Shown: positions 8,340-63,487, counted from the stretch's first letter. The stretch is DNA of 64,000 nucleotides from an uncultured virus (IMG/VR IMGVR_UViG_3300014350_000183) (IMGVR_UViG_3300014350_000183), one strand, 5' to 3'. Made by a program: numbers and translations. The notes: generated from the sequence alone by a model not told the origin.

Positions 8340-8375
8340 TGAACAATTGTACTGCCATAAACATTATTTTGTCAA
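8340..8375 (-). promoter_or_regulatory. Leftward sigma70 promoter overlapped by a LexA-type box
   Basis: TTGACA (8375-8370), 18-nt spacer, TACAAT (8351-8346). Box TGAAC-AATT-GTACT at 8340-8353. Confidence 0.7.
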
Positions 8376-8400
8376 CCTGTATTTACAAAGTAAACAATCA

Positions 8401-8429
8401 TTGACAAAATACAAATATCCCTATAAAAT
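8401..8429 (+). promoter_or_regulatory. Rightward sigma70 promoter (divergent switch region)
   Basis: TTGACA, 17 nt, TAAAAT. Confidence 0.75.
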
Positions 8430-8629
8430 ACCTACATACACATCATACAACAAAACACTGCATGATGTGTATAGCTAGGGTAGGGCGAGCGTCGGGAATA
8501 CAGTTTCAGTCCGCGCCCTACGCTTACCCTACTAATCTCATACTCACATTTTGGGCATCTCCCCGCGCCCGTAAGGATGGTGTAATATATGGTTAACTAA
8601 ACTCGAACATAATACCAACAAGACACATA

Positions 8630-8680
8630 CGAAAAATAGTTCCAATAAATGCTACACAAATTCGGAACATGAGTTATAAT
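8630..8680 (+). promoter_or_regulatory. Two degenerate LexA-type boxes overlapping a -10 TATAAT upstream of the replication operon
   Basis: CGAAA-AATA-GTTCC (8630-8643), GGAAC-ATGA-GTTAT (8664-8677), TATAAT (8675-8680). Confidence 0.5.
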
Positions 8681-8711
8681 GTTGTTAGATGTTCAAATGG
8701 AGAGAAGAACC

Positions 8712-9095
8712 ATGAAACAAAAAGTTATCACCAAAAAACCACGCTGGCATGAATCGGATGTTGAGAACTATGGGGTGTATTATGATGCTACCGCCCCCGA
8801 TAAAGACCTACCGCGCCATCTGGCTACATCCGTCCGCATGAAAATGACCGCCGTAGATGTGATGGAGCAAGGTTTATTCCAAGACCCTCATATCCGCGTA
8901 GTAGTCCCCATCGAATGTCACGATTTCCCCAATTGCCATTTTGAAGTGGTTGCAATGGAAAAACCAAGCCCACGCTCCCCGCGTATTGACGTGCGGATTA
9001 AATACATCGCACCAGAATCAAATCGCCTCAGTGGGTTTGCACACACCGTCCGCATGAATCCAAAAGCGCGTTTGCACATTATCGTTAACCAATAA
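8712..9095 (+). CDS. Hypothetical protein
   Basis: GGAG SD before the ATG at 8712. Confidence 0.7.
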   Translation: MKQKVITKKPRWHESDVENYGVYYDATAPDKDLPRHLATSVRMKMTAVDVMEQGLFQDPHIRVVVPIECHDFPNCHFEVVAMEKPSPRSPRIDVRIKYIAPESNRLSGFAHTVRMNPKARLHIIVNQ

Positions 9096-9188
9096 CGAAC
9101 CTGTGCATCCGCGCTCTTTGTATCTACAGGTGTTGTGGTCTACCGCCAAGTATGCCCACAACATCTGTGTATGAAAGGATAACTCAGA

Positions 9189-10994
9189 ATGAACGATTCA
9201 TCAACCAAACAAACGTCCCAAAACGGTGTTCATGGGGCAAATGGCACAAATTCCGCCAATGGAAGTACGATTTTAGCCCCAGAATCAGACGTAACGCTGG
9301 TCGCAGACACAACAATCCCCAATTTTGACATGCGCGGTGAAAGCAATCCGTGGGCTACTGCACGTAGCATCGTCACCATGACAGACGATACGGTCAAACG
9401 GATTAAACTGCTGGCGCAAATGTTTGAAGCCAGTAGCTTTAACAACTCACGAAACCCTCTGAAGCAAGGGGATTATTTCCTCATCATGCTCAAAGGCTTG
9501 GCAGTCGGATTAGACCCCATCATCGCCGTAGATTTTATCTCAGTCATACAAGGCAAACCTGTCATCGATGGCAAAGGGCTTTTAGCACTCATCCTCAATG
9601 CCAAACAACGGGGGGATGTCGAAGATATCATCATTGACTCGCAAGAGGAATATTGCGCCGTCACCATCAAACGCAGAGGGATGACTCCGCACACGGAAAC
9701 ATTTACCCTAGCAGACGCTCGGCGCATGAAAACCACCACATGGGAAAGTGGGCAAAAGAAAACAATCCCACTTATCGAAAAAGACAATTGGCAACAACAA
9801 CCACGCACCATGTTAAAGTGGCGGGCAGTCGCCGCCTGTGCGCGGGCGCATTGTGCCGACATCATTGGGGGGTTATACAGCAAAGAAGAAATAACAGATG
9901 GCGATATTGAGGTCTTAGAAGATGGGACTATGAATTTATTAGTGCCACCGCCCAAACAAAATGCACCTGCCAATATCACACCATTGCCCGCCAACACTCG
10001 CCCGAAACCAACCAGCAACGGGGCAACGCCTTCTGCACCCCCACCACCGCCCATCGAATACGACCCACTCACAGGCAATGAGGTCAATAGCACTCCCTCA
10101 TCGCCAAAACCCAATGGCGCGACCCCATCATCCACCGAACCCGACCCAAACGACCCTGAAGATATTCGCCATGCGATTCCCTTCTATGGGGCAGACCATT
10201 GGTACATTCAAAATTACAAAGGGTTTGTAAAAACCCTCCGCAAATTTATCACCAATCAAGACTCACTGCTTGACCATGAGGTATCATCAGCAGGGTTACG
10301 TTTGATGGGCATCCAAACATGGAAAACTTACCCCTCTGGCAAAGATGCGTTAATAGCGGTGGAAGCCAAATTTAATGCCACATCTGCACCCAAACCGCAA
10401 TCCACACCAGCATCGAAGCCCACAACGGAATCGAAGCCTCAAACCCCACCCACAGCCCCCAAACCATCGCAGACCGCGCCAGTTCCCGCACCAACACCTG
10501 AACCGACACCCAATTGGCACACCGCATTTGAGGATTGGCTATACACCTATTTCGACATGAAAAGCATCGCCGAATGGGAAGCCAAATCGGGCAAAAGCAT
10601 CGCCGACTATAAAACCCTCGCGGATGCCCAAGCGGATACCACCAACATCGCCAAGATGAATCATTGGGACATCCTAAGCACCACCGCCAAATATTTCAGC
10701 ATTGGGCGCGATACCTATATCGAATTCCATTCACTGTTCACGGTGCGGATGTATGGGCGCTCCAGCAAGTTCAAGCAACAAGTCGGCGATGAATATTATG
10801 CCGAATATGGGGTGGATGCGTGGAAACCCAACGGGGAATATGAAATCGGTTTGTTACGGGTGTCATGGAAACCCAATGAGAAAGGATTGGCTATTGCTCA
10901 TACTGTGACAGTTCTGGGAGATGGGGAAGGGGATGATTATCCCTCTGACCTGACACCAGAGGAAGAAGAGGCTTTGGCAAATGTGCCAATGTAA
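9189..10994 (+). CDS. RecT/Bet-like single-strand annealing recombinase with Pro-rich linkers and acidic C-terminus
   Basis: ISVIQGKPVI...NWQQQPRTMLKWRAVAACARAHCADIIGGLYSKEE is a phage RecT-like signature. Confidence 0.75.
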   Translation: MNDSSTKQTSQNGVHGANGTNSANGSTILAPESDVTLVADTTIPNFDMRGESNPWATARSIVTMTDDTVKRIKLLAQMFEASSFNNSRNPLKQGDYFLIMLKGLAVGLDPIIAVDFISVIQGKPVIDGKGLLALILNAKQRGDVEDIIIDSQEEYCAVTIKRRGMTPHTETFTLADARRMKTTTWESGQKKTIPLIEKDNWQQQPRTMLKWRAVAACARAHCADIIGGLYSKEEITDGDIEVLEDGTMNLLVPPPKQNAPANITPLPANTRPKPTSNGATPSAPPPPPIEYDPLTGNEVNSTPSSPKPNGATPSSTEPDPNDPEDIRHAIPFYGADHWYIQNYKGFVKTLRKFITNQDSLLDHEVSSAGLRLMGIQTWKTYPSGKDALIAVEAKFNATSAPKPQSTPASKPTTESKPQTPPTAPKPSQTAPVPAPTPEPTPNWHTAFEDWLYTYFDMKSIAEWEAKSGKSIADYKTLADAQADTTNIAKMNHWDILSTTAKYFSIGRDTYIEFHSLFTVRMYGRSSKFKQQVGDEYYAEYGVDAWKPNGEYEIGLLRVSWKPNEKGLAIAHTVTVLGDGEGDDYPSDLTPEEEEALANVPM

Positions 10995-11234
10995 ATATAG
11001 GCGATGAAAGATGTGTCTCTTGCAGAATATTGTGCTAAAGATAATTTTATGTTAAAGTTGTCTTTATATCGCTCTGAGCCTAAAACGAAAAAACGCCTGT
11101 GTCCAACAGCAGGCGGAAAAGCTCACAGTGATAAGTCTATTTTTGCAAGAGGCACTCGCAATGCCTCATGTCTTTTAGTGTACCCAATTTTTGGTTATAT
11201 GTCAAATTCAATTTGGCATTTTTAATCTAGGAGT

Positions 11235-12560
11235 ATGGTAATGGGTTATAAAGCAATGGAATGGGTGGTCAGAAATTGCCAGCAAACGGGGTCTAAAAAG
11301 CTGGCAATGATGATATTAGCATTCCACTCAGACGATAAAGGGGAGTGCTTCCCGTCACTCGAAACCCTATCAAATGAGGTGGTTGTCAATGAGCGCCAAA
11401 TGCGGGCTATTCTACGTGAATTAGAGACATCGGGCGAAATTGAAACGAAAACGGGCGGTGGAAGGCGCACAAACACCTATCGCATTCTAGGGTATATTCG
11501 AGATTCAAAATCCGATTTAACCGCCTCAGAGGGGCAGAGAATAACCCCTGTTGAGAACTGCCCCTCTAGTCATACATATACAGAAAACAACCTCTCTGGG
11601 GGGGCATCTACAACCCCTGTTATATCGCGCCCCTCTAACGGTGACATACAGAAAACAACCTCTCTGGGGGGGCATCTACAACCTCTCTCAGGGGCAGAAA
11701 ATAACCTCTCTGGGGGGTTATTGGCAACCCCCGAATTAAAATATAATATAAATTCAAGTACCATAGAAGAAACAAAACCCATTAAAAACAATGTCGCCCC
11801 CGTCGGTGACGACACGCAACAAACATATTTGCCAGAATCAACACACCCCCCACAGCTTACACAATCGGGTAACGCAAATATGTCGCAATCCTCCGACCAA
11901 ACAGGGACAACCTACCAACCCGCAACGCCTGTTATTGTCGCCGTTGAAGGGATGCCAACCAACTCGGATACGACCAAACCCAATTCAAAGCCAAGCAGTA
12001 AACCAACCCCCCCTGTAGTCCCCCCCGCCGACTCGCCCAAAGTGCGGACGCTCAGTGACCATCAACTCATGGTGAGTGCAATTGCGAAGGCGTTTGGGTG
12101 GGATTTTGCCATCATGACCAAGAGCAATAAAAAACTGGTCGGAAAAGTGGCGAGCGAACTGCGTGAGGCTGGCGCGACAGCCGATGACATCCCCGCGCTG
12201 TATGCGTATTGCAAAAATCAAAATTGGGGTGGCAAATGGACACCAATGGCATTATCCAGCCAATGGGCAAATTTCGTGGCAGATAAAGCCACCTCATCGG
12301 CATCAGTTTATCAAACCGAAAATGGCATGATTTTCCCCGTGTATGTCCCGCCAGCAGATTACAAACCGTTGTTTGATTACAGCGCGTTAACTGTGGCTAT
12401 TGCCGAATCTCCCCCGCAAAGTGATGTAAATGCCAATATTACCCCCGCAGAAACCGTAGAGGGCATTAAAGCCCTAATTAGCGAATTCGCCAAGCGAATG
12501 GATATTCCTGTGATGGATTTAGACCCAAACGACCCAATGAATGAGGTGTTACCATGGTAA
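11235..12560 (+). CDS. Phage replication initiator (N-terminal HTH_36-type wHTH)
   Basis: CFPSLETLSNEVVVNERQMRAILRELETSGEI...RRTNTY; internal iterons; directly upstream of dnaB. Confidence 0.85.
   Translation: MVMGYKAMEWVVRNCQQTGSKKLAMMILAFHSDDKGECFPSLETLSNEVVVNERQMRAILRELETSGEIETKTGGGRRTNTYRILGYIRDSKSDLTASEGQRITPVENCPSSHTYTENNLSGGASTTPVISRPSNGDIQKTTSLGGHLQPLSGAENNLSGGLLATPELKYNINSSTIEETKPIKNNVAPVGDDTQQTYLPESTHPPQLTQSGNANMSQSSDQTGTTYQPATPVIVAVEGMPTNSDTTKPNSKPSSKPTPPVVPPADSPKVRTLSDHQLMVSAIAKAFGWDFAIMTKSNKKLVGKVASELREAGATADDIPALYAYCKNQNWGGKWTPMALSSQWANFVADKATSSASVYQTENGMIFPVYVPPADYKPLFDYSALTVAIAESPPQSDVNANITPAETVEGIKALISEFAKRMDIPVMDLDPNDPMNEVLPW
11528..11760 (+). repeat. Iteron array and AT-rich tract: probable replication origin inside the initiator gene
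   Basis: Exact 38-bp direct repeat at 11578-11615 and 11646-11683; several GGGGCA-N6/7-AACC(C/T)CT units; AT-rich stretch at about 11734-11760. Confidence 0.8.
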
Positions 12561-13939
12561 ACGATACAAAACCGAATCGCCAACGACCAGTGCCAGTGCC
12601 AGTCTCAAAACCTGTTGCAAAATCAAACGACATGGCAGTGATAGAATACCCATACAGCCAAGAGGCAGAAGAAGCCGTCATTGGGAGCATCCTGATTGAC
12701 GAGCAGGTGTATTATAAATTGGCAACCTACCTCACCGCCAACTCGTTTTTCTTCCCACGCCACATCTACATCTGGGAGGCGATGGACGCCCTCGTGGATG
12801 AGGGGAGCGCCATAGATACACTGACCATCGGGGATAAACTCAAGGCAATGCGCCGTTTTGATGATGTCGGGCGCGATGCGTATTTAACCCATTTGTTGAC
12901 CAGCATCGCCACATCGCACAATGTCGAGGTGTATGCCAAAATCGTGCAGAGCAATGCGGCGCGACGGATGCTACTCCAATTGGCAGACGAAACAAAACGC
13001 ATGGCAATGGATGCCAACATCAGCATCACAGAGCTAATCGCCAGTGTAAGCGAAGCGGTAGACAAGACCGCAGGGCAATTAATGACCCCAGAAATTGCCC
13101 CCATCGGCAAATACCTGAATGGGCTATTAGACAGGATTGAAAGCAATACAAAATCCAACGGTCAAACCCAACTTATCCCGACTGGTTTATCGGCGTTAGA
13201 TGCGATTATTGGCGGGTATCAACGCAAAAAGGTGACATTGGTCGCAGGGCGCACGCATAACGGTAAATCTACACTCGCATACACATCGGTCATCGCTTGC
13301 GCCAAAATGGGTAAATCGGTGGCGCTATACAACACAGCAGACGGGGATGCTGAATCGGTGCTGATGTCGTTATTGTCTGTCGAATCAGGTGTTAGCACCC
13401 TCGCCATGAAAACGGGTGTTACCTCAGAACAATATCAGGCAATTGTTGGGGCGGCAGGGCGATTGGCAAAATTGCCAATATTTATCAAATCAGATAAAGA
13501 CCTCACCCCACGCGGATTGTATTTGCACGCGCGTGCCGTCCAATTCGTGCATGGATTAGACATGATTTTTGTGGATTATATCCAAGCGATGAAGGGCGGA
13601 CCGAACCAAACAGACTACGAGCGCCACTCATACATCGCCCAAGCATTGGATAACATCGCCAATAAACTCAATGTAGCGATGATAGAGATGGCACAAATTA
13701 ACCGCACAGGCGCGAAGAAGGCGATACCGGGGCTAGATGACATTGAGGGCAGTGGTAAATATGAGCAATATGCAGAGGTGGGGGCGATAGCCTATAACGA
13801 ATCCCTGTATAAACCAGAAGCCGACCCCAACAAAATGGCGTTTATCATCCAAAAGAACCGTGTTACGGGACGAACAGGGACGGCTATTGCCCATAAAAAT
13901 CCATATACCACAGCCCTAACAGATTGGCATGGGGATTAG
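12554..13939 (+). CDS. dnaB: Replicative DNA helicase, DnaB family
   Basis: PYSQEAEEAVIGSIL, Walker A AGRTHNGKS, FVDYIQ, AQINR, GSGKYEQYAE, KNR. Confidence 0.93.
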   Translation: MVNDTKPNRQRPVPVPVSKPVAKSNDMAVIEYPYSQEAEEAVIGSILIDEQVYYKLATYLTANSFFFPRHIYIWEAMDALVDEGSAIDTLTIGDKLKAMRRFDDVGRDAYLTHLLTSIATSHNVEVYAKIVQSNAARRMLLQLADETKRMAMDANISITELIASVSEAVDKTAGQLMTPEIAPIGKYLNGLLDRIESNTKSNGQTQLIPTGLSALDAIIGGYQRKKVTLVAGRTHNGKSTLAYTSVIACAKMGKSVALYNTADGDAESVLMSLLSVESGVSTLAMKTGVTSEQYQAIVGAAGRLAKLPIFIKSDKDLTPRGLYLHARAVQFVHGLDMIFVDYIQAMKGGPNQTDYERHSYIAQALDNIANKLNVAMIEMAQINRTGAKKAIPGLDDIEGSGKYEQYAEVGAIAYNESLYKPEADPNKMAFIIQKNRVTGRTGTAIAHKNPYTTALTDWHGD

Positions 13940-14033: not shown

Positions 14034-14062
14034 TTGCAATATCACTAATTTAGTGATATAAT
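14034..14062 (+). promoter_or_regulatory. Sigma70 promoter with a palindromic operator in the spacer
   Basis: TTGCAA, 17 nt, TATAAT; palindrome ATATCACTA-att-TAGTGATAT. Confidence 0.8.
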
Positions 14063-14115: not shown

Positions 14116-14364
14116 ATGGCACAACCCTTACAAACAGAAACCGAACAAGAGTGCGTCGTTATCCCCCGTCCGTATGAATCCCTCAGCACAGAGGATGCGG
14201 TTTGGTTGCGTGACCAATTGGAAATCGTCAATGAACGGGTGAGTGATATTTATGCTCACGACTACGATGCTATCCCCGCAGATTTGGACGGCATCAATTC
14301 GGCATACATCGCCCTCGAAATGGAATTGGCGATGCGCGGTCTGGCAGATGAGGATGGTGAATAA
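14116..14364 (+). CDS. Small acidic hypothetical protein
   Basis: First ORF after the promoter; coupled to the next gene. Confidence 0.7.
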   Translation: MAQPLQTETEQECVVIPRPYESLSTEDAVWLRDQLEIVNERVSDIYAHDYDAIPADLDGINSAYIALEMELAMRGLADEDGE

Positions 14365-22752: not shown

Positions 22753-22781
22753 TCGCAATATCACTGAGTTAATGATATAAT
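22753..22781 (+). promoter_or_regulatory. Sigma70 promoter with the same operator as 14034-14062
   Basis: TCGCAA, 17 nt, TATAAT; GCAATATCACTgagttAaTGATATAAT. Confidence 0.75.
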
Positions 22782-40976: not shown

Positions 40977-40993
40977 GCCACTCCTACAAAATA

Positions 40994-41017
40994 AGAATAT
41001 ATGTTCTAATTGTACCA
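40994..41017 (-). promoter_or_regulatory. Lysis promoter (extended -10) with a LexA-type box
   Basis: TGgTACAAT (41017-41009) adjacent to AGAAT-ATAT-GTTCT (40994-41007, + strand reading). Confidence 0.7.
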
Positions 41018-43959: not shown

Positions 43960-43964
43960 AATCG

Positions 43965-47608: not shown

Positions 47609-47609
47609 A

Positions 47610-48294: not shown

Positions 48295-48304
48295 ATCATC
48301 CCCC

Positions 48305-48871: not shown

Positions 48872-48873
48872 GA

Positions 48874-51459: not shown

Positions 51460-51471
51460 AACGACTTATCC

Positions 51472-52545: not shown

Positions 52546-52571
52546 AGGTTATCTCCTGTGATAAGTTCCGC

Positions 52572-52949: not shown

Positions 52950-52994
52950 ATTTCATACTCCTCTGCTCGCCTATTTGCGATGCGAATTGGGAAA

Positions 52995-54131: not shown

Positions 54132-54146
54132 GTACCATCTCCCAAA

Positions 54147-54173
54147 AGAACAAATGTACTAATTACAATTATA
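54147..54173 (-). promoter_or_regulatory. Capsid-operon promoter with a LexA-type box
   Basis: TATAAT (54173-54168); AGAAC-AAAT-GTACT (54147-54160) lies between the -10 and the SD. Confidence 0.7.
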
Positions 54174-54247
54174 TAGGATTTATTTATCAGATTACAATAA
54201 ATATAATGTTACAAAATATAGACAATTACGTGTTACATTACTGTAGG

Positions 54248-54574
54248 TTATGGGAGTTGCTTTAGCAGGTCGTGGAACTCAGCTCGTATCTCTGGATGTG
54301 TGTCATCTGTACATCCCAATTCAATCGCTTTCCGCGCATCCTCATACCGCCCACATCGCCAAGCGAGAGTCGCCGCACTCCGATATAGTACAGACCGTGA
54401 CGGCTCGGTAACAGATAACCCCGCCGATTCCAGCTCTAATTCGTATGCACGGCTATTGAGTTCGATTGCCAAATCAGGGTATCCCATGCGCCTCATCTTA
54501 TCGGCTTCGTCCACCAAGCGCATTGCTTTATGATGCAATGCGTGCATTTTCGATTCAGGTTTAACTTGCTCCAT
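54248..54574 (-). CDS. Small helical TPR-like protein
   Basis: LHHKAM...EPSRSVLYRSAATLA...PEIRAE. Confidence 0.65.
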   Translation of the reverse strand: MEQVKPESKMHALHHKAMRLVDEADKMRRMGYPDLAIELNSRAYELELESAGLSVTEPSRSVLYRSAATLAWRCGRYEDARKAIELGCTDDTHPEIRAEFHDLLKQLP

Positions 54575-55745: not shown

Positions 55746-55746
55746 C

Positions 55747-56547
55747 TCACATCCTCACAATCTCAAAATCGGTGCGGTTCTTACCCTCATACGGTGCATC
55801 CACACCTTCAAACGGGATACATAACCCATAGCGCGACTCATCAAACGGCAGGTGATAAATCTCTTCTTCAGGCAACCCGCCCCATTTCCGCAGGTAATAT
55901 TCCCGATTCGCTACGAATGTGCGGTGATGTTGTTCCATTAATTCTGGATTTGTCCAGATGGTTTTGCTTCCCTGATGGATGATGTTGGTATCAGGTAGGA
56001 CGATTTTCCAGCTATCCCAACTGCCCGTCATGAGCATGGCACGCCGATACCAATCTCTGTCCTCAAAATAAATCGGGAAGAAGTTCTGGTCGAAATAGCC
56101 CACCTCTTGTATCGCTCGACGGCTAATCACCGCCATGCTGAACAGCATATCCCCGTCTGTGTTGGTACGGATTTCGCGCCCCCATCCACTGACCATATAA
56201 GCGGATGGATTTTCCACCGCCTTGCACGCCAGGGCAACCACTTCATCATAGGTGCATAGCGCATCATCGCTGGCGATGAATGTCGCATCTGCCCCATATT
56301 TGCTGTATGCCAGATGAAAGCCTTCATTCCATGACTTGGCGAGTCCACGATTCACCCGATAATCATACAAATGGACATTCTTCATTTCGTCCAATTCATC
56401 ACACACCTTCACCACATCGGGGTAATCGCTGTGCAGGAATAAATGCCATGTGATACCCACCCCATCGGCATTATCCACCAGCCGATACAAGTCATCCGCC
56501 AATCCATAGGCGGTGATAATAATGTGCATGTTAGGCAGATTCATCAC
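55747..56547 (-). CDS. Glycosyltransferase family 2 (GT-A fold)
   Basis: NRGLAKSWNEG, ASDD (DxD-like), GYFDQNFFPIYFEDRDW, YLRKWG. Confidence 0.9.
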   Translation of the reverse strand: MMNLPNMHIIITAYGLADDLYRLVDNADGVGITWHLFLHSDYPDVVKVCDELDEMKNVHLYDYRVNRGLAKSWNEGFHLAYSKYGADATFIASDDALCTYDEVVALACKAVENPSAYMVSGWGREIRTNTDGDMLFSMAVISRRAIQEVGYFDQNFFPIYFEDRDWYRRAMLMTGSWDSWKIVLPDTNIIHQGSKTIWTNPELMEQHHRTFVANREYYLRKWGGLPEEEIYHLPFDESRYGLCIPFEGVDAPYEGKNRTDFEIVRM

Positions 56548-57058
56548 TCACCCCCTCTTCGATTCGCCAATCCCACAAATACGGCTTAATGGCGGTTTTC
56601 CATTGGCGTTTCATGCGGTTGCCGAAGCCACGATGTTGCGCTTTTTCGCCAATGGAGAAATGATATGTATACCCGTCATCCTCAAACATCGGCGGAGTTG
56701 CCCAGATACACATATCCAGATAGACAAACCGTTTGCCAGCTTCAACCTCTTTGGTCAGCCATTGCATCCGTTCAAATGTGGGGTTACTCGCCCCATACGC
56801 ATCTTTCAGATTCCCAATCCCCCATGCTTCAATCGGCTTTAATTGCTCCATATACGCCAGCCAATCCATTGGGTTGGTGAATAACACCACATCCGCCTTA
56901 TCCTGCCGATGCAATTTCACATACCAATAGGGGATAAACAAAATGGATGTCTTGCCAGCCACAACCATCACATCAGTCATACAAGTAACGGTATTGCCCA
57001 TGTGGTCGCAATGCTCGGCAATCTCCACGCGCTTATTGGTTTTCGGGTTGTTCATCAT
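56531..57058 (-). CDS. Hypothetical protein
   Basis: GAGGAG SD; overlaps both neighbours. Confidence 0.6.
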   Translation of the reverse strand: MMNNPKTNKRVEIAEHCDHMGNTVTCMTDVMVVAGKTSILFIPYWYVKLHRQDKADVVLFTNPMDWLAYMEQLKPIEAWGIGNLKDAYGASNPTFERMQWLTKEVEAGKRFVYLDMCIWATPPMFEDDGYTYHFSIGEKAQHRGFGNRMKRQWKTAIKPYLWDWRIEEGVSDESA

Positions 57059-58682
57059 CCATCTCCTCATCTTCGTCTGGATTATCCTCATCACTGCTCA
57101 TATCTTCATCGCGTCTCTGCCCAGAGAGCAATGCCTCTTGCCTACGGTCATATTCCTCTGCTTTTTCGGCTTGTTCCGCTTTTGCCTTCGCAATCACATC
57201 GGCAGGATTCTCAATGTCGAGTGGCAACAATCGCAACGCCGTCTCATCATCTAGTAACCCTCTATCTACCGCGAATTGCACCGCTTGGAGCGTCAACGAC
57301 CCATCGGCATTGGTGAGTGGCATCCAGCCAATGTTCACCGATTCATCCTGTCCGATTCCCGTCTCATACGTGCGGATAATCGAAACTACCACATCCAGCA
57401 CCGCATTGAGCCAGCGTGTGACCTGCCCTTGTTTCTTCTCAATGAAGCGCACAAATGGGGGCATCTGGCTCTCCGCGCTCGCTTTGGAACTCGCAATCGC
57501 ATTCCCCCACACAAATTCGGGGATTTCACTGTGCTGGAGTATCAGGTAAAACAGCAATTCCAGCAGGTTTTGGGTGTCGGTGGTGAAACTACCCGGTGCT
57601 TTCCAATCAAATTTGGCATTCCCACCCAACGTCAGCACCTTATCGGCATCAAAATCTAAGACAGGCACAAGTTCTTCATTCCCATCAGCATCTACATGCC
57701 GTTCCTTCTTCCCGAACAATTCCCAGAAATTTTTAATCTGGTCAACATCCCCCATCTCAGAAATGACGGGTGTTGGTCGTCCCTGACGTTTGTTACCCGC
57801 GATGGCATACTCAAACACATCATCATAGCGATACATGGCGTGTAATAACCCCTCTGCCACAGGATGACCATACCGCTCATCCGCACCTGCATCGTGGGCG
57901 ATGTGGATAATCGGGATTTTCCCCGTCAAATTGCGGAAGCGTTGCGTTTTTAGCGTGTTGGTTTGCGTCTTATACACCCCGTCTTGAATCACATCGGCAT
58001 CTATCGAAACCGTCCGTACACGCTCGGTAGCGGTGTAATCATTGGTGATGGTCATCCGCGAAAAGGTGTACGGGTTCTGATGCACCTCAGTGACACGATA
58101 CCCCACCACAACCGAATAATCATCTTTCGCCAGAATCGGCATGACCACCTGTGGCGGTAGGATGGTCAGCGACAAATCGGCATTGACCAGCAGGTAACAA
58201 TCACCAATCGCACAGGCTTCTTCATACGCTTCAATCAGTTTGGCATGATGTTCACTCACCCAATCCGACACCAATTCTTGTGCGGTTTCAGATTCACTAC
58301 GGATTTTCGGTATCTGCCCAAGTGTCCATGACGCGATTTTACTCGCCAGTGGCTTGATGAATAACCCCCCCAACCCAAGCCCTTGCGCCCTACCCCGTCG
58401 CGCCTTATCCCAGAAGGCATAATCCGTCTGACCAATATCCACTGTCGGCTGAAAGTGGGGCATATTCCAACGGAGCATGAGCCGATTTGGACGCGGGTTA
58501 TCCTGTGATTCACTCACCATCCCACGCTTGCCCACATCGGTGAGCATATACCCCTCAGTTGTTGATTGTATCATCCCGCGCCGTTCTAATCCCGCAATCG
58601 TGGATTTTTTCGCCTTCCCAAATGACCCGCTTTGGTGGAATTGTTTCAGCGCCTCCTGCATCGTGTCTGATAATGTCGTCAT
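57033..58682 (-). CDS. Portal protein with an N-terminal wHTH-like extension
   Basis: Follows terL; GDCYL, IPIIHI...YGHP, SEIPEFVWG; acidic tail. Confidence 0.85.
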   Translation of the reverse strand: MTTLSDTMQEALKQFHQSGSFGKAKKSTIAGLERRGMIQSTTEGYMLTDVGKRGMVSESQDNPRPNRLMLRWNMPHFQPTVDIGQTDYAFWDKARRGRAQGLGLGGLFIKPLASKIASWTLGQIPKIRSESETAQELVSDWVSEHHAKLIEAYEEACAIGDCYLLVNADLSLTILPPQVVMPILAKDDYSVVVGYRVTEVHQNPYTFSRMTITNDYTATERVRTVSIDADVIQDGVYKTQTNTLKTQRFRNLTGKIPIIHIAHDAGADERYGHPVAEGLLHAMYRYDDVFEYAIAGNKRQGRPTPVISEMGDVDQIKNFWELFGKKERHVDADGNEELVPVLDFDADKVLTLGGNAKFDWKAPGSFTTDTQNLLELLFYLILQHSEIPEFVWGNAIASSKASAESQMPPFVRFIEKKQGQVTRWLNAVLDVVVSIIRTYETGIGQDESVNIGWMPLTNADGSLTLQAVQFAVDRGLLDDETALRLLPLDIENPADVIAKAKAEQAEKAEEYDRRQEALLSGQRRDEDMSSDEDNPDEDEEMDDEQPENQ

Positions 58683-58698
58683 GGTATCCTCGTGTATA

Positions 58699-58733
58699 AG
58701 AACATTTGTACTAATTGTAACATATCTTGTCAA
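58699..58733 (-). promoter_or_regulatory. Portal-operon promoter with a LexA-type box
   Basis: TGtTACAAT (58722-58714) and TTGACA (58733-58728); AGAAC-ATTT-GTACT (58699-58712). Confidence 0.75.
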
Positions 58734-60242
58734 TTAGCGCCAACTTGCCTGCATAAACCCAATCTCTTTCTTTTCCGCCAGCTTATTGAACGCACCCGCC
58801 GTCGCATCGGCTTGGTCACGATACATCCCATTGGGGATGGCAACCATCTCCTCAATGTAATCGTGATTCCATTTGCCCCTGACCAATTTCACATTCCCCG
58901 CTTCGGTCTGTGCGGCGAATGGTTCTAACCGTGTATCCTTATCGCCTGTGGGACGGTCTGCATACACCGAGTGACCAACCAGATTGCGTATGGTGGCTTC
59001 TGCCGATTCCTTCCCACCACTACCCGGTTCTTGTTCGATGAATACGCGAACTTTTCCTGCGCCGTATTTCTGGGCATCCAGTTCAGCCGTTTGCTTAATC
59101 ACCCGTTCCCGTTCCAATGCGGAATACCATCCACGCACCACATCTTCGATGTAAATCATCCCGTCATCTGTCATGGCGATGAGTACGCCCGCAGTCGCGG
59201 CAGATTTTCCATTTCCGTTTGAATACGCCGTCCCTGCTTTGTCCCAATACCTTATCCGTTTGGCATGAATCGGCGCACTGTCCACAATCTCAAACCATGA
59301 CCGCTTAAACCGATTCCCCTCTGCACTTCTCGGCACACCCTGATATTCCGATGTCCATGCCATGATACCAACATCGCGTTTAATCCGCAGGAGTTCTTCT
59401 TTGCTAAATCGGCTTGGCGATAAGGCTTCACCCGCTTCTCTCCCTAATGGGTCTGGCTGACCTATTGGCAACCCCAAATATTGGTTATTTGCATCCCGTT
59501 CTTCTTGAGATTCGGCTAATGCAGGCAGTCTTAATACGGTCCATTCCTCTGGGTTATCCGCCAAAAGCATCCCTGCGAGGTCGTTTTGATGCCACCGCGT
59601 CATAATCAGCACAATCGCACCCCCTTCCCAAATACGGGTACGAAATGTCGCCCGATACCAATCCCACACCCGTTCACGATATGTCCGACTCTGTGCCTGC
59701 TCCCAATTTTCATGCGGGTCATCTATAATCCCAAACAACCCGCCATGCCCCGTGACGGGACCGCCAACCCCAACCGCCAACATGCTCCCACGATATGGCG
59801 CGTTCAATAACCAATTATCCACCGCCCGACTATCTGACCGGGTTTCCACTGGTGGCAGATTGCGTAACGCATACCGTCCAAACAAACGGCTATACTCAGT
59901 AGATTCCACCACAGCTCGCGCCTGACGTGATTTCGATTCTGCCAGTGATGCCCCATAGCTAGATAACACAATCGGGTCATTTGAACGGTCTCCCAAACAC
60001 AAGGCAGGGAAACGGACGGATGTTAATTCGCTTTTCCCATGCTGGGGTGGGGTGAATATCATTAGCCGTTTTATCAACCCCATTCGCACATCATCCAATT
60101 TAGAAGCAATGAGATGATGTACAGGGTCAGCTTTATATTCAGGATAAGTGTATTGCGTGAACGCCATTAACCCCAATCGCGCCAGTTTACGCCGATGGTA
60201 TTCTATACCCGCTTGTTTCCTTGTGATTAACTCACCACCCAT
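58734..60242 (-). CDS. terL: Terminase large subunit
   Basis: PPQHGKSE, IIDDP, MTRWHQNDLAG, YWDKA, IEQEPGSGGK, DQADA. Confidence 0.96.
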   Translation of the reverse strand: MGGELITRKQAGIEYHRRKLARLGLMAFTQYTYPEYKADPVHHLIASKLDDVRMGLIKRLMIFTPPQHGKSELTSVRFPALCLGDRSNDPIVLSSYGASLAESKSRQARAVVESTEYSRLFGRYALRNLPPVETRSDSRAVDNWLLNAPYRGSMLAVGVGGPVTGHGGLFGIIDDPHENWEQAQSRTYRERVWDWYRATFRTRIWEGGAIVLIMTRWHQNDLAGMLLADNPEEWTVLRLPALAESQEERDANNQYLGLPIGQPDPLGREAGEALSPSRFSKEELLRIKRDVGIMAWTSEYQGVPRSAEGNRFKRSWFEIVDSAPIHAKRIRYWDKAGTAYSNGNGKSAATAGVLIAMTDDGMIYIEDVVRGWYSALERERVIKQTAELDAQKYGAGKVRVFIEQEPGSGGKESAEATIRNLVGHSVYADRPTGDKDTRLEPFAAQTEAGNVKLVRGKWNHDYIEEMVAIPNGMYRDQADATAGAFNKLAEKKEIGFMQASWR

Positions 60243-60243
60243 G

Positions 60244-60837
60244 TTAATCCCCCATGATGATAGTTAAAAGTTCCTCATCCGATAATTCTTCGGGGTTAAT
60301 CGTGTGTTGAATCTTGCCAACCACCGCCATTTTAGTGATTTCCAAACCAAGCAATTTGTCAATTTGCGCCTGCGCTTTCATGGCGGTTTCTAACCAATTC
60401 CGTTGTTCACTGGCAATCTTAGGCGAATACACCCGCATTTCGCTCATGGTGGCACTCGCCTTGCGATACCCCTCCCAAGCGCGTGTTTTAATTTCTTCAT
60501 ATTGAGCGATGGATTTTGCCCGCGCATCGTCCACCTGTTGCATACTATCCCGTCGCCACAGCGTATACACCCGTTGTATATCGCGTTGGGCGGTGCGAAT
60601 GGGGATAGAGAGCGCCTCTGCCACCTGATGCCCCTTTGCCCCTTGCACGATGAGATTGGCAACCGTTGCCAGTCGCCTCAGAATTTCTTCATCTTGGTCC
60701 CACGGGATATTCTTCTGATTCCGATTGCGTGGGGGTGGCAATTCAGGGACGATGATTTGCGGTTTTACTTTTTCCGCTTTGGGCTTCGGTGGTTGGGGTG
60801 GCTTCGGTGGTCTACCCCGTTTTTTCGGCTCATCCAT
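60244..60837 (-). CDS. terS: Terminase small subunit
   Basis: HTH (HQVAEALSIPIRTAQRDI), KLLGL, LSDEEL; directly upstream of terL. Confidence 0.8.
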   Translation of the reverse strand: MDEPKKRGRPPKPPQPPKPKAEKVKPQIIVPELPPPRNRNQKNIPWDQDEEILRRLATVANLIVQGAKGHQVAEALSIPIRTAQRDIQRVYTLWRRDSMQQVDDARAKSIAQYEEIKTRAWEGYRKASATMSEMRVYSPKIASEQRNWLETAMKAQAQIDKLLGLEITKMAVVGKIQHTINPEELSDEELLTIIMGD

Positions 60838-61000
60838 CTTCACCCCCCTCTAGTTGTTCATCCTCATCATGGTTGGCATCTTTAACCAAATCCATGCCTT
60901 GCTTGAATTTATCTGCGATTTCCGACTCTGTTTTGGCGTTCATAATTTGTTCCGCCAATTCAAGGGCTTTCATCAATCTTGCTTTCGCATCATCACTCAT
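60830..61000 (-). CDS. Small hypothetical protein
   Basis: ATGA overlap with the ParB-like gene. Confidence 0.55.
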   Translation of the reverse strand: MSDDAKARLMKALELAEQIMNAKTESEIADKFKQGMDLVKDANHDEDEQLEGGEDG

Positions 61001-61755
61001 GAGTTTGTCTCCATTTCCTCTGCTAATTGGGCTAATCTCTCTAGTGCCAAGCGTGCCATTTCTGCCAGTGCGGTTGGCGCATTGACAATATCCATATCGG
61101 CACGCACACGCTGAAACGCTTTCTTCCATTCCTCATAAATCTCGCGGTTGGCAATATACACCGCATCTACTTGCGTCTTGGGCATAATCGCCTCGATGAC
61201 CGCATCAAAGTCGCATTTCTGTGTCGGCAGGAACACCAGCATAATCGTTTTGGCAGTCGTGACCATATTCACATCTACTGGCTTAAAACTCACTGGTTTC
61301 AGGTCAGAAAATTGGGCAGGGTCAATGAACGCCTCAAATCGCGCTTGCACATCGTCGATCTGTTCCCATATCCGCTTCACGATTTCGGGGTCAGATGTGC
61401 CATGAATACTGTTATGAGCTAACTGCTTGGCGCGAATCTGGGATGGGGTGAGTTCCGTGTACACAATGGCGAGTGTCTTAGCGATACCCGCCGTCCGCAT
61501 GGCGCGGATACGATGATGCCCACTGACAATATCCAACCCCTTATCCGTCTTAACCAATAGAGGCAACGATTCTGGCGCACCTGAATTTTTCAGGTTATTC
61601 ACCAATTGGTCAAACATCGCTTTGGGCATGGATTGGGCATTCAGGTCTTGTTCGCGCACATCATCCACCCCCACATACATCAAGCGCATGTTGGTCGGTA
61701 GCACCTGCGCGGATAAGGCTTCGAGCGTGGCATTAATATCGGTTAAGTCGGTCAT
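60997..61755 (-). CDS. ParB/Srx-like domain protein associated with DNA modification
   Basis: NAQSM...IVSGHHRIRA...QLAHNSIHG. Confidence 0.85.
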   Translation of the reverse strand: MTDLTDINATLEALSAQVLPTNMRLMYVGVDDVREQDLNAQSMPKAMFDQLVNNLKNSGAPESLPLLVKTDKGLDIVSGHHRIRAMRTAGIAKTLAIVYTELTPSQIRAKQLAHNSIHGTSDPEIVKRIWEQIDDVQARFEAFIDPAQFSDLKPVSFKPVDVNMVTTAKTIMLVFLPTQKCDFDAVIEAIMPKTQVDAVYIANREIYEEWKKAFQRVRADMDIVNAPTALAEMARLALERLAQLAEEMETNS

Positions 61756-63200
61756 TTTCCATCCTTCTGCACATCGGCAAATCGGGTTAACCACTCTTTC
61801 AGCGTCGCCTCACGACTACGCCGATTCGTGGCGGTGCTATACGTTAACTTATACGTCCCGTCTTTTTGTTGTTCGCGGGTATCCAGCTTAAAAATCCCCC
61901 GCGCACTTTTCACCTCTGGATGATGCGTGAGCATGGTGGTCTTAACGTGTTTCGGCGCTCCGTTCAGCTCATACCAATTCTCTGCACCCAGCACATCATC
62001 CCAAAACCATTCGCTGGTGATGCTCATGAGCGTGAGTTTGTGTAACCTGTCATATCTGGGATGCCCTGCTGTGAAGGCGAATGTGACACTCGCGCAATGC
62101 TCCAGCACCTTATCCCCCTTCTTTATCACCTTCCCCCTACGCAAATCGGCAAGGTGTAATCCGATGATACCCATGAGGAAGCCGTCCGCGATGAGCGCGA
62201 TATACATCTCGGTCACGCTACCCGGTAAACGGTGGATGAACAGGTCGCGGTAATAATCCCCCACCCCTTTTTCGACTCTGAGCGCCTTAATCGCCGTCTT
62301 GTCGGTGATGTCACCCGTGAACAGTGGGAATTTCGCCCCACTCGCCACAATCTTCCCTCTGGATGCTTCGACTCCCACCGGGTCACGGTTAGCGATAATC
62401 CAGTTAATCGCCGCCTGCCCCATACTATTGGGACGGTCTGCAAACACACTCCGCCACGGACTACCCCACTGTGGCGACGGGTCTTCACCATCTGTCGCAT
62501 AGTACATCAGCGAGAGCGCCTCATCTTCTGCCAGCATATCCATGAGCGTGGGATAATCCTTCTCGGTGAATTGCTTGGCACTCGGTTCATCCCACGCGAA
62601 AATCTCATCTATGCCCGCAAACATACGAGAGTAACCCCCGGTATATCGTGGTGGATTAATTAAGCCAACAATATCGGCGCTCCCTAGCTCATTTTCCATC
62701 GTCACCCACATATCTTGAGGCAAGTAAGTCAATCCTTGCAGGTATGACCGCATTTCGATGACCTGCTCCCGCAATTGCCCGATGTACACCAAGCTATTAC
62801 GGACAAGTTCCATCCGCCGATGTTCGTGATACGCCTTCTTGTCCTTCCGCACATATTGCAAAATCCGCACCATGAGCAATACCCCTACCGCCTTATCCAG
62901 TGGGGTTGTCATGAGTGGGGTCATGATGTCGGCATATTCAGGCGATACACCATCTTTGAGGTCTAATCGCCAGTCACTATCCATGATGGCATTGCCGAGT
63001 GCGGTGGAATACAGCGAGATGTCACCACACACGATACTATCTGCCGATACACCCGCCTCACGCGCCACCCACGCCAATGAGAATGACCCGGTACACGGGA
63101 TGACCACCTTGCGCGGTTTGACTGCACCTAACACTCTAGCGGTATACCCTCTCGTTTTGCTTCTCGGTATTCCCCGGAATAAAATATCTGGATTGGAAAT
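61752..63200 (-). CDS. Dam-like adenine MTase-fold plus C-terminal GNAT/Mom-like DNA-modification (anti-restriction) protein; probable ATT start
   Basis: IPCTGSFS, GDISLYS, INPPRYTGGY; C-terminal GNAT-like half; the frame stays open upstream to AAAGGAGG-8 nt-ATT at 63200. Confidence 0.7.
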   Translation of the reverse strand: MSNPDILFRGIPRSKTRGYTARVLGAVKPRKVVIPCTGSFSLAWVAREAGVSADSIVCGDISLYSTALGNAIMDSDWRLDLKDGVSPEYADIMTPLMTTPLDKAVGVLLMVRILQYVRKDKKAYHEHRRMELVRNSLVYIGQLREQVIEMRSYLQGLTYLPQDMWVTMENELGSADIVGLINPPRYTGGYSRMFAGIDEIFAWDEPSAKQFTEKDYPTLMDMLAEDEALSLMYYATDGEDPSPQWGSPWRSVFADRPNSMGQAAINWIIANRDPVGVEASRGKIVASGAKFPLFTGDITDKTAIKALRVEKGVGDYYRDLFIHRLPGSVTEMYIALIADGFLMGIIGLHLADLRRGKVIKKGDKVLEHCASVTFAFTAGHPRYDRLHKLTLMSITSEWFWDDVLGAENWYELNGAPKHVKTTMLTHHPEVKSARGIFKLDTREQQKDGTYKLTYSTATNRRSREATLKEWLTRFADVQKDGK

Positions 63201-63250
63201 ATGCCTACCCTCCTTTCTCCATTGGAGAAACGACCTATATAAACAAAAAG

Positions 63251-63321
63251 ACCAGCCCGTAGGATTTGTCCTACTCCTCCACCTTGAGCAGATGGCGACC
63301 TAACACATAGTCGAGGGCTGG
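63251..63321 (-). ncRNA. tRNA-like four-arm cloverleaf in the 5' leader (not a canonical tRNA)
   Basis: CCAGCCC/GGGCTGG 7-bp closing stem plus three hairpins, followed by a U-rich tract. Confidence 0.6.
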
Positions 63322-63398
63322 ATAATGAGTCTGCCATGCGGAGGGTGTTTTTAGCCTATAGCACATCACACCAACAAAACACTTACCCACAGCATAAC

Positions 63399-63447
63399 AG
63401 AACTTTTGTTTTATCGCAAGTATACCTAACTCGTTTTCATACGTCAA
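63399..63447 (-). promoter_or_regulatory. Leftward promoter of the modification/packaging operon with a LexA-type box at the start site
   Basis: TTGACG (63447-63442), 17 nt, TATACT (63424-63419); AGAAC-TTTT-GTTTT (63399-63412). Confidence 0.75.
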
Positions 63448-63458
63448 GTGCCTAACCC

Positions 63459-63487
63459 TTGCATTTATGGAACGCCTATTCTAAAAT
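63459..63487 (+). promoter_or_regulatory. Divergent promoter of the DUF488 gene with a LexA-type box in the spacer
   Basis: TTGCAT, 17 nt, TAAAAT; GGAAC-GCCT-ATTCT (63469-63482). Confidence 0.65.

Follow-up and report, generated by a model that had tools for sequence, protein, structure and literature searches.

In the phage-plasmid P1, the phage-encoded repressor C1 acts at many dispersed operators, and expression of the late genes further requires Lpa as an activator. Coliphage 186 and the Gifsy prophages use LexA-controlled antirepressors. A LexA-regulated antirepressor is likewise described for the plasmid prophage N15 (PMC11652158). The closest known system to the locus studied here is GIL01, a tectivirus of Bacillus thuringiensis (with relatives such as Bam35), whose lysogeny depends on host LexA. 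According to the published accounts, LexA represses its early promoter P1 and its late promoter P3, the latter driving capsid and lysis genes, and the prophage is extrachromosomal, has no dedicated CI-type repressor and is induced by DNA damage (PMC6182141, PMC4551915). As described there, the system also depends on the LexA co-factor gp7 and on gp6, a truncated homologue of LexA that activates P3, and its authors themselves compare GIL01 with LexA-gated colicin/bacteriocin operons (PMC6182141). In a full-text literature search, direct LexA repression of late genes was found for the GIL01 group only, besides N15-type antirepressors. So far, a host SOS repressor serving directly as prophage repressor has been worked out essentially for one small Bacillus tectivirus.

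Here, we analyzed a window of 64,000 nucleotides from an uncultured virus (IMGVR_UViG_3300014350_000183) together with 3.9 kb of flanks; the whole contig is probably 70.5 kb long, with ~2.6 kb outside this coverage. The element is a tailed phage of ~70 kb (Table 1), and three box-bearing transcription units make up its virion gene block. No integrase family was found among the 75 ORFs of the window or in the flank search, which, together with a ParA/ParB-like module and the phage's own replication genes, makes it most likely that the element is maintained in a Chloroflexi host as a plasmid prophage. The plasmid state that we infer would resemble the extrachromosomal GIL01 prophage, whereas GIL01 itself lacks a tail, contains a membrane and has three promoters on 15 kb, compared with a ParA module, five or more separately boxed promoters and a probable Chloroflexi host here. 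The host was assigned solely via metagenome bin G001, where the same phage occurs at 99-100% identity on many contigs; the GAAC-N4-GTTC-type motif is common to several phyla and therefore does not pin down the host. None of the RNA runs searched contained phage sequence.

Table 1. Features of the window discussed in the text, in order of position
Feature	Position	Strand	Sequence	Score or match	Remark
Maintenance and replication block	3775..13939				
ParB-like gene	3775-4518			weak match	
ParA	4497-5309			E = 1.8e-23	
Sole perfect GAAC-N4-GTTC core of the window	8229..8244			11.6 bits	
Box on P_L	8339..8354			10.8 bits	
Strong sigma-70-like promoter, no box	8401..8429	+	TTGACA, 17 bases, TAAAAT	11/12	
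Two weaker boxes	8629..8678			10.6 bits; 7.9 bits (weak)	8629-8644; 8663-8678
RecT-like gene	9189-10994				
Replication initiator	11235-12560				
DnaB	12554-13939				
Perfect palindrome, second operator type	14041..14057		ATCACTAATTTAGTGAT		within spacer of promoter TTGCAA-17-TATAAT, operon 14116-22747
Intragenic LexA-like 16-mer	14141..14156			13.6 bits	25 bases into ORF 14116-14364
Second copy, second operator type	22760..22776		ATCACTGAGTTAATGAT		promoter of operon 22828-27638
Box H	40993..41008		AAGAATATATGTTCTA	16.5 bits	
Virion gene block	41071..63134	-		Pfam and PHROG matches	
Dit	43965-44828	-		Pfam/PHROG	
Tape measure	44825-47608	-		Pfam/PHROG	
Capsid	51472-52545	-		Pfam/PHROG	
Box I	54146..54161		AAGAACAAATGTACTA	13.8 bits	
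Portal	57033-58682	-		Pfam/PHROG	ATG at 58682
Box J	58698..58713		AAGAACATTTGTACTA	13.8 bits	between TerL and portal genes
TerL	58734-60242	-		Pfam/PHROG	
Box K	63398..63413		CAGAACTTTTGTTTTA	13.3 bits	
Box L	63468..63483		TGGAACGCCTATTCTA	12.0 bits	

In order to obtain the LexA motif of the host lineage, lexA was located in 40/41 related genomes and recA in 25/26, and 56 lexA and recA upstream regions from the host order were subjected to unsupervised EM motif finding with random seeds. The 8 best of the 10 EM solutions printed represented one motif, TAGAAC-N4-GTTCTA, in various registers; the GAAC-N4-GTTC motif given for LexA in the sequence-only reading thus agrees with the host lineage and is extended by it. 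The scoring matrix was symmetrised and built from 75 distinct sites in host-lineage lexA and recA promoters; picking these because they belong to SOS genes is reasonable, but enrichment under this matrix is then not assessed blindly. With it, the operators of lexA and recA in the host score 14.0 and 14.5 bits, respectively, and the five strongest phage boxes (H-L), at 12.0-16.5 bits, are equal to them. The host LexA sequence contains an Ala-Gly site, GDSM and the conserved Lys and therefore looks self-cleaving.

All eight boxes proposed by the sequence-only reading were recovered within one base (core starts at 8341, 8631, 8665, 40995, 54148, 58700, 63400 and 63470), each with exactly one mismatch to GAACNNNNGTTC, and the observation of host-LexA-type boxes on phage promoters is confirmed. 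The expected enrichment over background held in intergenic DNA but not window-wide. Across the window, GAAC-N4-GTTC matched 20 times compared with 21.45 +/- 4.47 times in shuffled sequences (66/100 shuffles reached 20), and 8/20 matches fell into non-coding DNA, which makes up 5.5% (3,505 bp) of the window (binomial P = 5.6e-6). The proposed matrix scan of promoters versus coding DNA gave, at 10 bits or more, seven intergenic matches and three in 60.4 kb of coding DNA; composition-preserving dinucleotide shuffles of the intergenic DNA yielded 0.22 on average, and 0/2000 reached seven. The intragenic 16-mer at 14141 is probably a chance match, and the orthologous sister-phage contig L069 has no site of at least 9.5 bits there. 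The only perfect core lies inside a 66-aa ORF (8123-8323), in a region that has diverged in the sister-phage contig L061.

The promoter scans and direct reading placed boxes H-L at the -10, just downstream of it or in the spacer, where a bound dimer would block RNA polymerase, and the five copy the placement of the lexA and recA operators of the host. Box H adjoins the extended -10 TGGTACAAT (41009-41017, minus strand) in the promoter of module 40976-37977; this extended -10 was read from the sequence, with no -35 match (0 promoter-like sites in the scan). The module is a putative lysis module whose proteins are membrane or coiled-coil in character, with no Pfam or PHROG match. Box J adjoins the -10 TACAAT (58714-58719) of promoter 58743..58714 (minus strand), and the near-identical geometry claimed for these two sites was borne out: an extended -10 (TGnTACAAT), two bases, and the 12-mer core, the same two-base distance as for the second box of host-family lexA promoters (e.g. 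TATAAT-TA-GAAC, L010). In promoter 54197..54168 (minus strand), which drives the head-and-tail operon 54131-41071, box I follows the -10 TATAAT (54168-54173) at a distance of 6 bases. In promoter 63447..63419 (minus strand), box K follows the -10 TATACT at 5 bases; the operon of this promoter, 63134-58734, comprises a Dam-like/GNAT gene, a ParB-like nuclease and TerL. Box L fills the spacer of the DUF488 promoter (TTGCAT 63459-63464, 17 bases, TAAAAT 63482-63487, plus strand) in the layout of the host recA promoter (TTGCAT, 5 bases, 12-mer core, -10). The position of the box relative to the -10 differs between promoters, which fits operators rather than a promoter element. Boxes H, I, J and K on late promoters recall P3 of GIL01 as described in the cited accounts, and colicin/bacteriocin lysis operons similarly place suicidal functions directly under LexA operators overlapping the promoter, although these are single plasmid operons and not a whole virion programme.

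All five boxes H-L are kept in the sister phage of bin G001 and in viral and metagenome relatives with 73-93% portal identity. The box H ortholog on sister-phage contig L098 scores 15.6 bits with an altered spacer, box J orthologs (L063/L071, L072, L073, L085) keep TAGTAC-N4-GTTCTT while the N4 varies, and box I orthologs score 14.5 bits in L064, where the stretch is just 65% identical, and 12.0 bits in L072/L074. Box K is kept in L065/L071, and in L085 its degenerate half-site has shifted from GTTT to ATTC, with a higher score of 15.0 bits; in box L orthologs, 2-3 of the 4 spacer bases differ around an unchanged core. Over nine pairwise comparisons, changes affected 2/72 core, 12/36 spacer and 6/36 flanking positions, with a Fisher P of 2.4e-5 that is overstated because the sequences are related and not independent. 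Host sites drift in the same way, with variable spacers and fixed half-sites. More distant relatives with 29-50% portal identity (GC 50-66%) have no box at the portal promoter. These data bear on the view that the boxes are chance matches or a by-product of AT-rich promoter sequence with no regulatory role. The chance-level count across the window and the AT-rich intergenic stretches (GC 0.20-0.56) would agree with it, but the intergenic shuffles, the conservation of the core despite spacer drift and the half-site shift in L085 that keeps and even improves the score make it highly improbable.

A phage DNA-binding protein unrelated to LexA in sequence could instead read the boxes as the phage's own repressor or late regulator, their likeness to SOS boxes being mimicry or coincidence. 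Boxes I and J and the box at 8339 share a non-consensus GTAC half-site and a longer common context, CTAATTGTA, and the phage encodes many small orphan ORFs, among them P0001, a 66-aa four-helix protein. However, GTAC halves also occur in native recA operators (L045, L034, L036, L038, G042) and, in two host-genus genomes outside the training set, upstream of a gene for an AlkZ-like DNA glycosylase, in its promoter; the shared context is simply the -10 element, and no PDB structure matched the modelled fold of P0001. Since the varying box positions, the recA-like layout of box L and the host-like drift also speak against such a protein, we consider it improbable.

In the early control region, the box at 8339 overlaps the -10 TACAAT (8346-8351) of promoter P_L (8375..8346, minus strand), which precedes operon 8323-3775 with a 66-aa orphan, a polX-like gene, ParA and the ParB-like gene. 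This box is absent from the sister-phage contig L061, where the second palindrome type described below takes its place. The replication operon 8712-13939 has the two weaker boxes at its promoter 8653..8680 (plus strand). The 8663 box overlaps the -10 TATAAT and is identical in L062, but the local identity of 91% makes this uninformative on conservation, and the 8629 ortholog falls beyond the contig end in the sister phage. The best sigma-70 match of the region, the unboxed promoter 8401..8429, points to the replication operon across a hairpin-rich stretch (8435-8560), and positions 8397-8563 show 89% identity to the sister phage between diverged flanks. Where GIL01 has LexA boxes on its early promoter, the replication promoter here has boxes of 10.6 and 7.9 bits, and the stronger promoter at 8401-8429 has none. 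In GIL01, LexA acts mainly at the early switch, while the strong and conserved boxes here are late.

The two DNA-metabolism operons 14116-22747 and 22828-27638 have no LexA-type promoter box and carry a second operator type, an ATCACT-N5-AGTGAT-like palindrome. It has 8 strand-wise matches compared with 1.84 expected (0/100 shuffles reached 8). In host genomes, the phage's own contigs aside, it occurs solely as 1-mismatch copies at 1.7-4 times control. Its presence in two operons suggests at least one further regulator, probably phage-encoded. Taken together with the weakly boxed early region, this indicates that LexA is probably not the sole control.

The absence of a visible CI noted by the sequence-only reading agrees with the searches: no CI, S24 or LexA homologue was detected in the window or its 3.9 kb flanks, and there was no CI/Cro family among the 75 ORFs. 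When 2,404 six-frame fragments of window and flanks were searched (host-LexA HMM, filters off; best E = 0.12), neither a LexA-like DNA-binding domain nor an S24 domain emerged, and hence also no counterpart of gp6 of GIL01. The proposal in that reading that most operons are boxed fits the five promoters H-L and, more weakly, the early region, but not operons 14116-22747 and 22828-27638 or promoter 8401-8429. Its idea of LexA control rather than CI control is partly supported: motif, placement, conservation and the failure to find a CI are in line with it, but setting aside any CI overstates the case, as the ATCACT operator points to a further, probably phage-encoded regulator. In the strictest form of this idea, host LexA would be the sole lysogeny repressor, with neither a phage CI nor a late activator, and the lytic programme would be released in one step. 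In addition to the lack of CI, Cro, S24, LexA-like or integrase domains in window and flanks, the sigma-70 scan matched both hexamers of late promoters I, J and K, and none of the four late promoters is obviously activator-dependent (H having the extended -10 without a -35 match). Most of the ~2.6 kb outside coverage probably belongs to two long ORFs, as their 5' regions; the ORF in the left flank begins within a UvrD-like C-terminal domain, and the right-flank SH3 protein is 5'-incomplete. Nevertheless, the phage-specific second palindrome in two promoter spacers, the strong unboxed early promoter, the same palindrome type on P_L of the sister phage and more than 40 ORFs without known family, among which a repressor may be found, render this form unlikely.

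An antirepressor switch as in 186, N15 or Gifsy would place LexA at one small gene (DUF488 or P0001), with an unseen phage repressor and the remaining boxes incidental. In its favour, a short first gene follows box L and likewise the 8339 box, and N15 offers the precedent cited above. DUF488, however, is not known as an antirepressor family. These systems resemble the present one in coupling induction to SOS through a phage promoter that carries a box for host LexA. They combine one LexA-controlled gene with a phage CI-type repressor, whereas here at least five boxes are conserved, including four at promoters of structural or lysis-like genes that such a switch leaves unexplained, and no recognisable repressor was found in the window or flanks. 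We regard this switch as very doubtful.

We therefore favour, as somewhat likelier to be right than wrong, that the boxes are host LexA operators on phage promoters, with LexA probably not the sole control. Motif match, enrichment, geometry and conservation are seen in the sequence; binding, repression and SOS induction are what we infer from them. As the sites on virion promoters resemble host LexA operators, host stress signalling probably silences and releases the virus. Four separate sigma-70-type promoters (units H, I, J and K) would drive the virion and putative lysis genes and a fifth (unit L) the DUF488 gene, each with one host-type LexA box on the -10, directly after it or in the spacer. 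A LexA dimer bound there would block RNA polymerase; upon DNA damage, activated RecA would trigger LexA self-cleavage, and all five promoters would open together. The weakly boxed partition and replication region may stay expressed, as a plasmid prophage needs it anyway, and a further, probably phage-encoded regulator would act via the second palindromic operator. Such a system would resemble phage-plasmid P1 as a plasmid prophage with one repressor at many scattered operators on separate operons and no single switch, but the repressor would be host LexA and no activator was seen.

If true, the strategy would extend to large tailed phage-plasmids and to Chloroflexi, a phylum in which phage genetics hardly exists, and in a different form, in which many scattered operators gate each of the late operons and an activator homologous to LexA is absent. 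It would also provide a concrete regulatory map of five operators and the host LexA gene for an uncultured virus-host pair, and operator mimicry of host lexA/recA promoters could serve in assigning hosts to metagenomic phages and in predicting their SOS inducibility.

A bolder version, in which the phage has no repressor of its own, LexA sits at every virion and lysis promoter, firing upon SOS is activator-independent and occurs in one step, replication and partition remain on, and the arrangement recurs in the distant Anaerolineae prophage L078, appears to us a tentative proposal with rather low probability. In L078, two promoter copies carry a 12.7-bit box with recA-like geometry, and the LexA motif of its host is the same.

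The element in the window is a tailed phage: 75 ORFs scanned against Pfam and PHROG gave the genes listed below, and among these ORFs no match was obtained to integrase, S24 peptidase, LexA-type or CI/Cro-type families. For 28 proteins that are small or of unknown family, relaxing the Pfam threshold to E = 0.5 gave nothing above any curated cut-off; the window had no Rfam or tRNA match, and no deposited phage matched 10 kb of it by megablast.

Features of the window: annotated genes, late units and LexA-type sites, with scores from the host LexA matrix
Feature	Position	Strand, block or location	Score (bits)	Source
TerL	58734-60242	minus		Pfam/PHROG
Portal, SPP1-type	57033-58682	minus		Pfam/PHROG
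Capsid	51472-52545	minus		Pfam/PHROG
Tape measure	44825-47608	minus		Pfam/PHROG
Dit	43965-44828	minus		Pfam/PHROG
RecT-like	9189-10994	rightward replication block		Pfam/PHROG
Replication initiator	11235-12560	rightward replication block		Pfam/PHROG
DnaB	12554-13939	rightward replication block		Pfam/PHROG
ParA	4497-5309	leftward maintenance block		Pfam/PHROG
ParB-like (weak match)	3775-4518	leftward maintenance block		Pfam/PHROG
polX-like	6241-7227	leftward maintenance block		Pfam/PHROG
Dam-like/GNAT DNA-modification gene	61752-63134			Pfam/PHROG
Late unit H	40976-37977
Late unit I	54131-41071
Late unit J	58682-54248
Late unit K	63134-58734
Box H	40993	intergenic	16.5
Box J	58698	intergenic	13.8
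Box I	54146	intergenic	13.8
Box K	63398	intergenic	13.3
Box L	63468	intergenic	12.0
LexA-like box on P_L	8339	intergenic	10.8
LexA-like box	8629	intergenic	10.6
LexA-like site	14141	coding	13.6
LexA-like site	8229	coding	11.6
LexA-like site	23940	coding	10.6

The nearest genome to the window is G001, a 1,300-contig metagenome bin labelled as an uncultured Chloroflexi, which holds the window phage on many contigs at 99-100% identity and also a sister phage at 65-93% identity. The window represents part of the element, as one of its proteins is also recorded on a 70,515-bp contig and G001 contigs carry sequence past it (2,570 bp leftward, 1,347 bp rightward). On the left, a giant ORF (window 2-1138 and contig L059 1-3693; 1,236 aa or more) has its C-terminus at the window's end; as far as seen, it begins within a UvrD-like helicase C-terminal domain and continues in long repetitive acidic modules without a family match, and a search of viral contigs for relatives gave one uninformative 33-residue match. 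The right flank encodes DUF488, an ORF of 79 aa and, in convergent orientation, a membrane protein in which Pfam finds an SH3 domain and whose tail is rich in cysteine. In the tail-gene region, 75 consecutive N (43030-43104) overlap ORFs 42840-43223 and 43000-43974. Among the sequencing runs listed as containing the sequence, none was an RNA run.

G001 encodes one canonical LexA, with the Ala-Gly site, GDSM and the conserved Lys readable in the sequence. The operator motif was derived from lexA upstream regions of 30 same-order genomes and recA upstream regions of 26 loci (lexA was present in 40/41 genomes, recA in 25/26). In an EM search from random seeds, TAGAAC-N4-GTTCTA registers formed the best 8 of 10 printed solutions, in agreement with the host motif GAAC-N4-GTTC that the sequence-only reading had proposed, and 75 distinct sites were used to build a symmetric matrix. 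Binding of Dehalococcoides LexA to GAAC-N4-GTTC has reportedly been demonstrated in print; our literature search did not retrieve that work, and the host motif rests here on our own derivation. In the host genus, the first lexA box lies in the spacer between TTGACA and the -10 and the second 3 bases past the -10 (2-3 bases in other genera), while recA promoters read TTGCAT, 5 bases, GAACTTTTGTGC, -10. Across 12 host-genus loci (about 40 kb), the sole match of at least 10 bits besides the lexA and recA operators, which match by construction, scores 10.2. The strict pattern WAGAACNNNNGTDCTA was not enriched in three host-genus genomes (7 matches versus 9 for the reversed control). Three of the seven are one conserved stretch, clearly within a long ORF in two of the three genomes and, at a guess, ribonucleotide reductase; the only informative match is a site in the promoter of an AlkZ-like DNA glycosylase, found in two genomes.

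All eight sites named by the sequence-only reading were recovered, each with one mismatch to GAACNNNNGTTC. Over the whole window this pattern occurs at chance level (20 matches versus 21.45 +/- 4.47), and 8 of the 20 fall within the 3,505 bp (5.5%) that are non-coding by our own gene list (P = 5.6e-6). With the host matrix, seven intergenic sites reach at least 10 bits, compared to 0.22 in dinucleotide-preserving shuffles of the intergenic DNA, where 0/2,000 reach seven; the eighth named site, 8663, scores 7.9 bits. We consider it very improbable that the boxes are a product of chance. The phage box scores equal those of the host's own operators (lexA 14.0 bits, recA 14.5 bits); that a phage-encoded protein binds the boxes is judged improbable.

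The placement of the boxes follows host promoters closely. In boxes H and J, the 12-mer core lies 2 bases past an extended -10 (TGGTACAAT, TGTTACAAT), just where host-family genomes have their second lexA box. Boxes I and K lie 6 bases past TATAAT and 5 bases past TATACT, respectively, thus covering the start site. Box L occupies the whole 17-base spacer of TTGCAT...TAAAAT, touching the -10 and matching the spacing of the host recA layout base for base, and the 8339 box overlaps the -10 of P_L, the minus-strand promoter (8375..8346) of operon 8323-3775. Since the position relative to the -10 varies, the boxes are better understood as operators than as a promoter element. In one half of three phage boxes GTAC replaces GAAC or GTTC. 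This half-site also occurs in native recA operators of four related genera and of an Anaerolineae genome (G042), as well as in the AlkZ-like promoter, which belongs to a DNA-repair gene outside the training set. A role at the RNA level, as a 5'-UTR element, was rejected, because box L lies in an untranscribed promoter spacer and 4-bp stems would be unstable.

The sister phage and five contigs from viruses or metagenomes (portal identity 73-93%) keep all five late and right-end boxes (H-L); the one ahead of 54131 persists though its surroundings are only 65% identical. Over nine window-versus-ortholog comparisons, which are phylogenetically non-independent, changes numbered 2/72 in the core (eight positions), 12/36 in the spacer (four positions) and 6/36 in the flanks (Fisher P = 2.4e-5). 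In contig L085, the mismatch in the degenerate half of box K has relocated (GTTT to ATTC), raising the score to 15.0. Relatives at a greater distance, with portals 29-50% identical, did not show the portal-promoter box. In an Anaerolineae genome, a prophage of 45% identity (L078) carries in duplicate (617, 4334) a promoter some 60 bp long whose spacer holds a 12.7-bit LexA-like box; one copy is upstream of a large ORF preceding the portal gene, and one is at the apparent prophage edge, adjoining a WD40 gene. The lexA and recA genes of its host carry the same motif, and we regard the boxed promoters as a lead, rather than proof, for a similar strategy in a distant prophage. The 512-aa ORF upstream of its portal gene had no Pfam match and was not called a terminase. 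The same host genome contains a second LexA-like, S24-only gene, with two strong boxes in tandem ahead of it (L111 2171-2212; 14.4 and 19.4 bits).

Our preferred reading, to which we give somewhat better than even chances, is that host LexA operators gate the late units and DUF488 of a plasmid prophage, with a second regulator acting elsewhere. Carriage as a plasmid prophage is suggested by ParA, own replication genes and the lack of an integrase; replication and partition genes would then have to remain on, and virion and lysis-type genes would be those needing silence. The four late units and DUF488 each have a promoter of sigma-70 type bearing a single host-type LexA operator, at a position that would block polymerase, so that SOS induction would open them together. 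The second regulator would act on two operons for DNA metabolism and perhaps on the early region too.

A second operator-like palindrome, ATCACT-N5-AGTGAT-like, is found at 14041-14057 ATCACTAATTTAGTGAT and 22760-22776 ATCACTGAGTTAATGAT, within the spacers of TTGCAA/TCGCAA-17 bases-TATAAT promoters of operons 14116-22747 and 22828-27638. The window holds eight strand-wise matches versus 1.84 expected. In four host-genus genomes, one-mismatch sites number 8-17 per genome per strand versus 2-7 for the control (1.7-4x, the phage's own contigs aside), with no sign of a host regulon. Just one perfect copy was found (C53), and a copy identical to the window's second site, with one mismatch, lies on C207; both are phage contigs. 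As the host genomes, apart from the phage's own contigs, show nothing closer than one-mismatch copies, the binder is probably phage-encoded.

This palindrome also bears on the stronger reading in which host LexA is the sole repressor. In its favour, a host-LexA HMM run with filters off on 2,404 six-frame fragments of the window, flanks and relatives gave no match (best E = 0.12); thus, a homologue like gp6, the truncated LexA homologue of GIL01, is absent from the sequence seen. However, two operons carry a different operator, the sister phage's P_L lacks the 8339 box and has an ATCACT...AAGTAT palindrome-like sequence instead, the sequence that best matches a sigma-70 promoter in the early control region (8401-8429; TTGACA, 17 bases, TAAAAT) is without a box, and the window contains more than 40 orphan ORFs. 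We therefore consider sole control by LexA unlikely. The proposal that LexA replaces CI stands insofar as CI/Cro, S24 and LexA-type matches are missing from the sequence scanned, but gives way at the second operator type, the box-less early promoter and the unconserved 8339 box.

The stretch 8397-8563, read through from the 8401-8429 promoter, has 89% identity to the sister phage between flanks that have diverged on either side. It is a candidate non-coding RNA or replication element. Downstream of the promoter lie a hairpin of 18 bp (8435-8473) and then a GC-rich stem (~8479-8540); folding of 8440-8620 was not significant (z = -1.56). The first gene of the P_L operon, P0001 (66 aa, 8123-8323), has one relative only and no named Atlas neighbours; its single-sequence AF2 model predicts a four-helix bundle (pLDDT 78.6) with no fold match in the PDB (best E = 4.8). 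A role as repressor or LexA co-factor was supported by none of these analyses.

Phage P1 follows a dispersed-operator logic, which the arrangement proposed here shares, although the repressor here would be the host's. For the Bacillus thuringiensis tectivirus GIL01, two reports describe LexA repression of both its promoter P1 and its late promoter P3 (PMC6182141, PMC4551915); a host protein as repressor is likewise proposed here, for a tailed phage. In full-text searches, direct LexA repression of late phage genes was found for the GIL01 group only, and a LexA-controlled antirepressor for N15 (PMC11652158); a switch of the antirepressor type appears very improbable here. The principle would be that of GIL01, at work in another type of virus, another host phylum and another architecture; the case for it is computational so far.

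Within a 653-bp non-coding gap (32909-33561), the stretch 33015-33362 matches segments of at least six other G001 contigs (C1059, C1026, C224, C315, C146, C671) at 73-95% identity, which further connects the phage with this bin. Inside the stretch are a TTGCAT-17-TATACT promoter, hairpins and a stem that resembles a terminator and has a T-run; copies of the 35-base palindromic unit CTCTAAGAGAGTAAACAACGGCTTACTTCTTAGAG come after it. The stretch had no Rfam match and may be a repeat element or a small RNA gene shared with the host. Nearby, 33403-33418 GTTCTAATTTTAGAAC is a perfect palindrome with both LexA half-sites in opposite (tail-to-tail) order, to which the LexA matrix gives no score. The adjacent low-GC (0.38-0.40) island 27739-32908 encodes an HSDR_N-type endonuclease, a 363-aa unknown protein, a HerA/FtsK-like ATPase and an N6/N4 DNA methylase, flanking a divergent promoter region (28840-29114, 25% GC); its promoters carry no LexA box, and the island resembles a cargo module for defence or anti-defence.

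Two relatives (L071 2288-2656; L065 around 542) have an extra 122-aa gene, containing an internal LexA-like site of 10.2 bits, between the box K-type promoter and the Dam-like gene; the corresponding gap in the window holds only a doubtful 69-aa ORF (63128-63337). At recA loci of the host genus and family (L052-L056), several recA genes lie in open frames of 664-750 aa whose RecA match is broken after about 200 positions, which suggests inteins.
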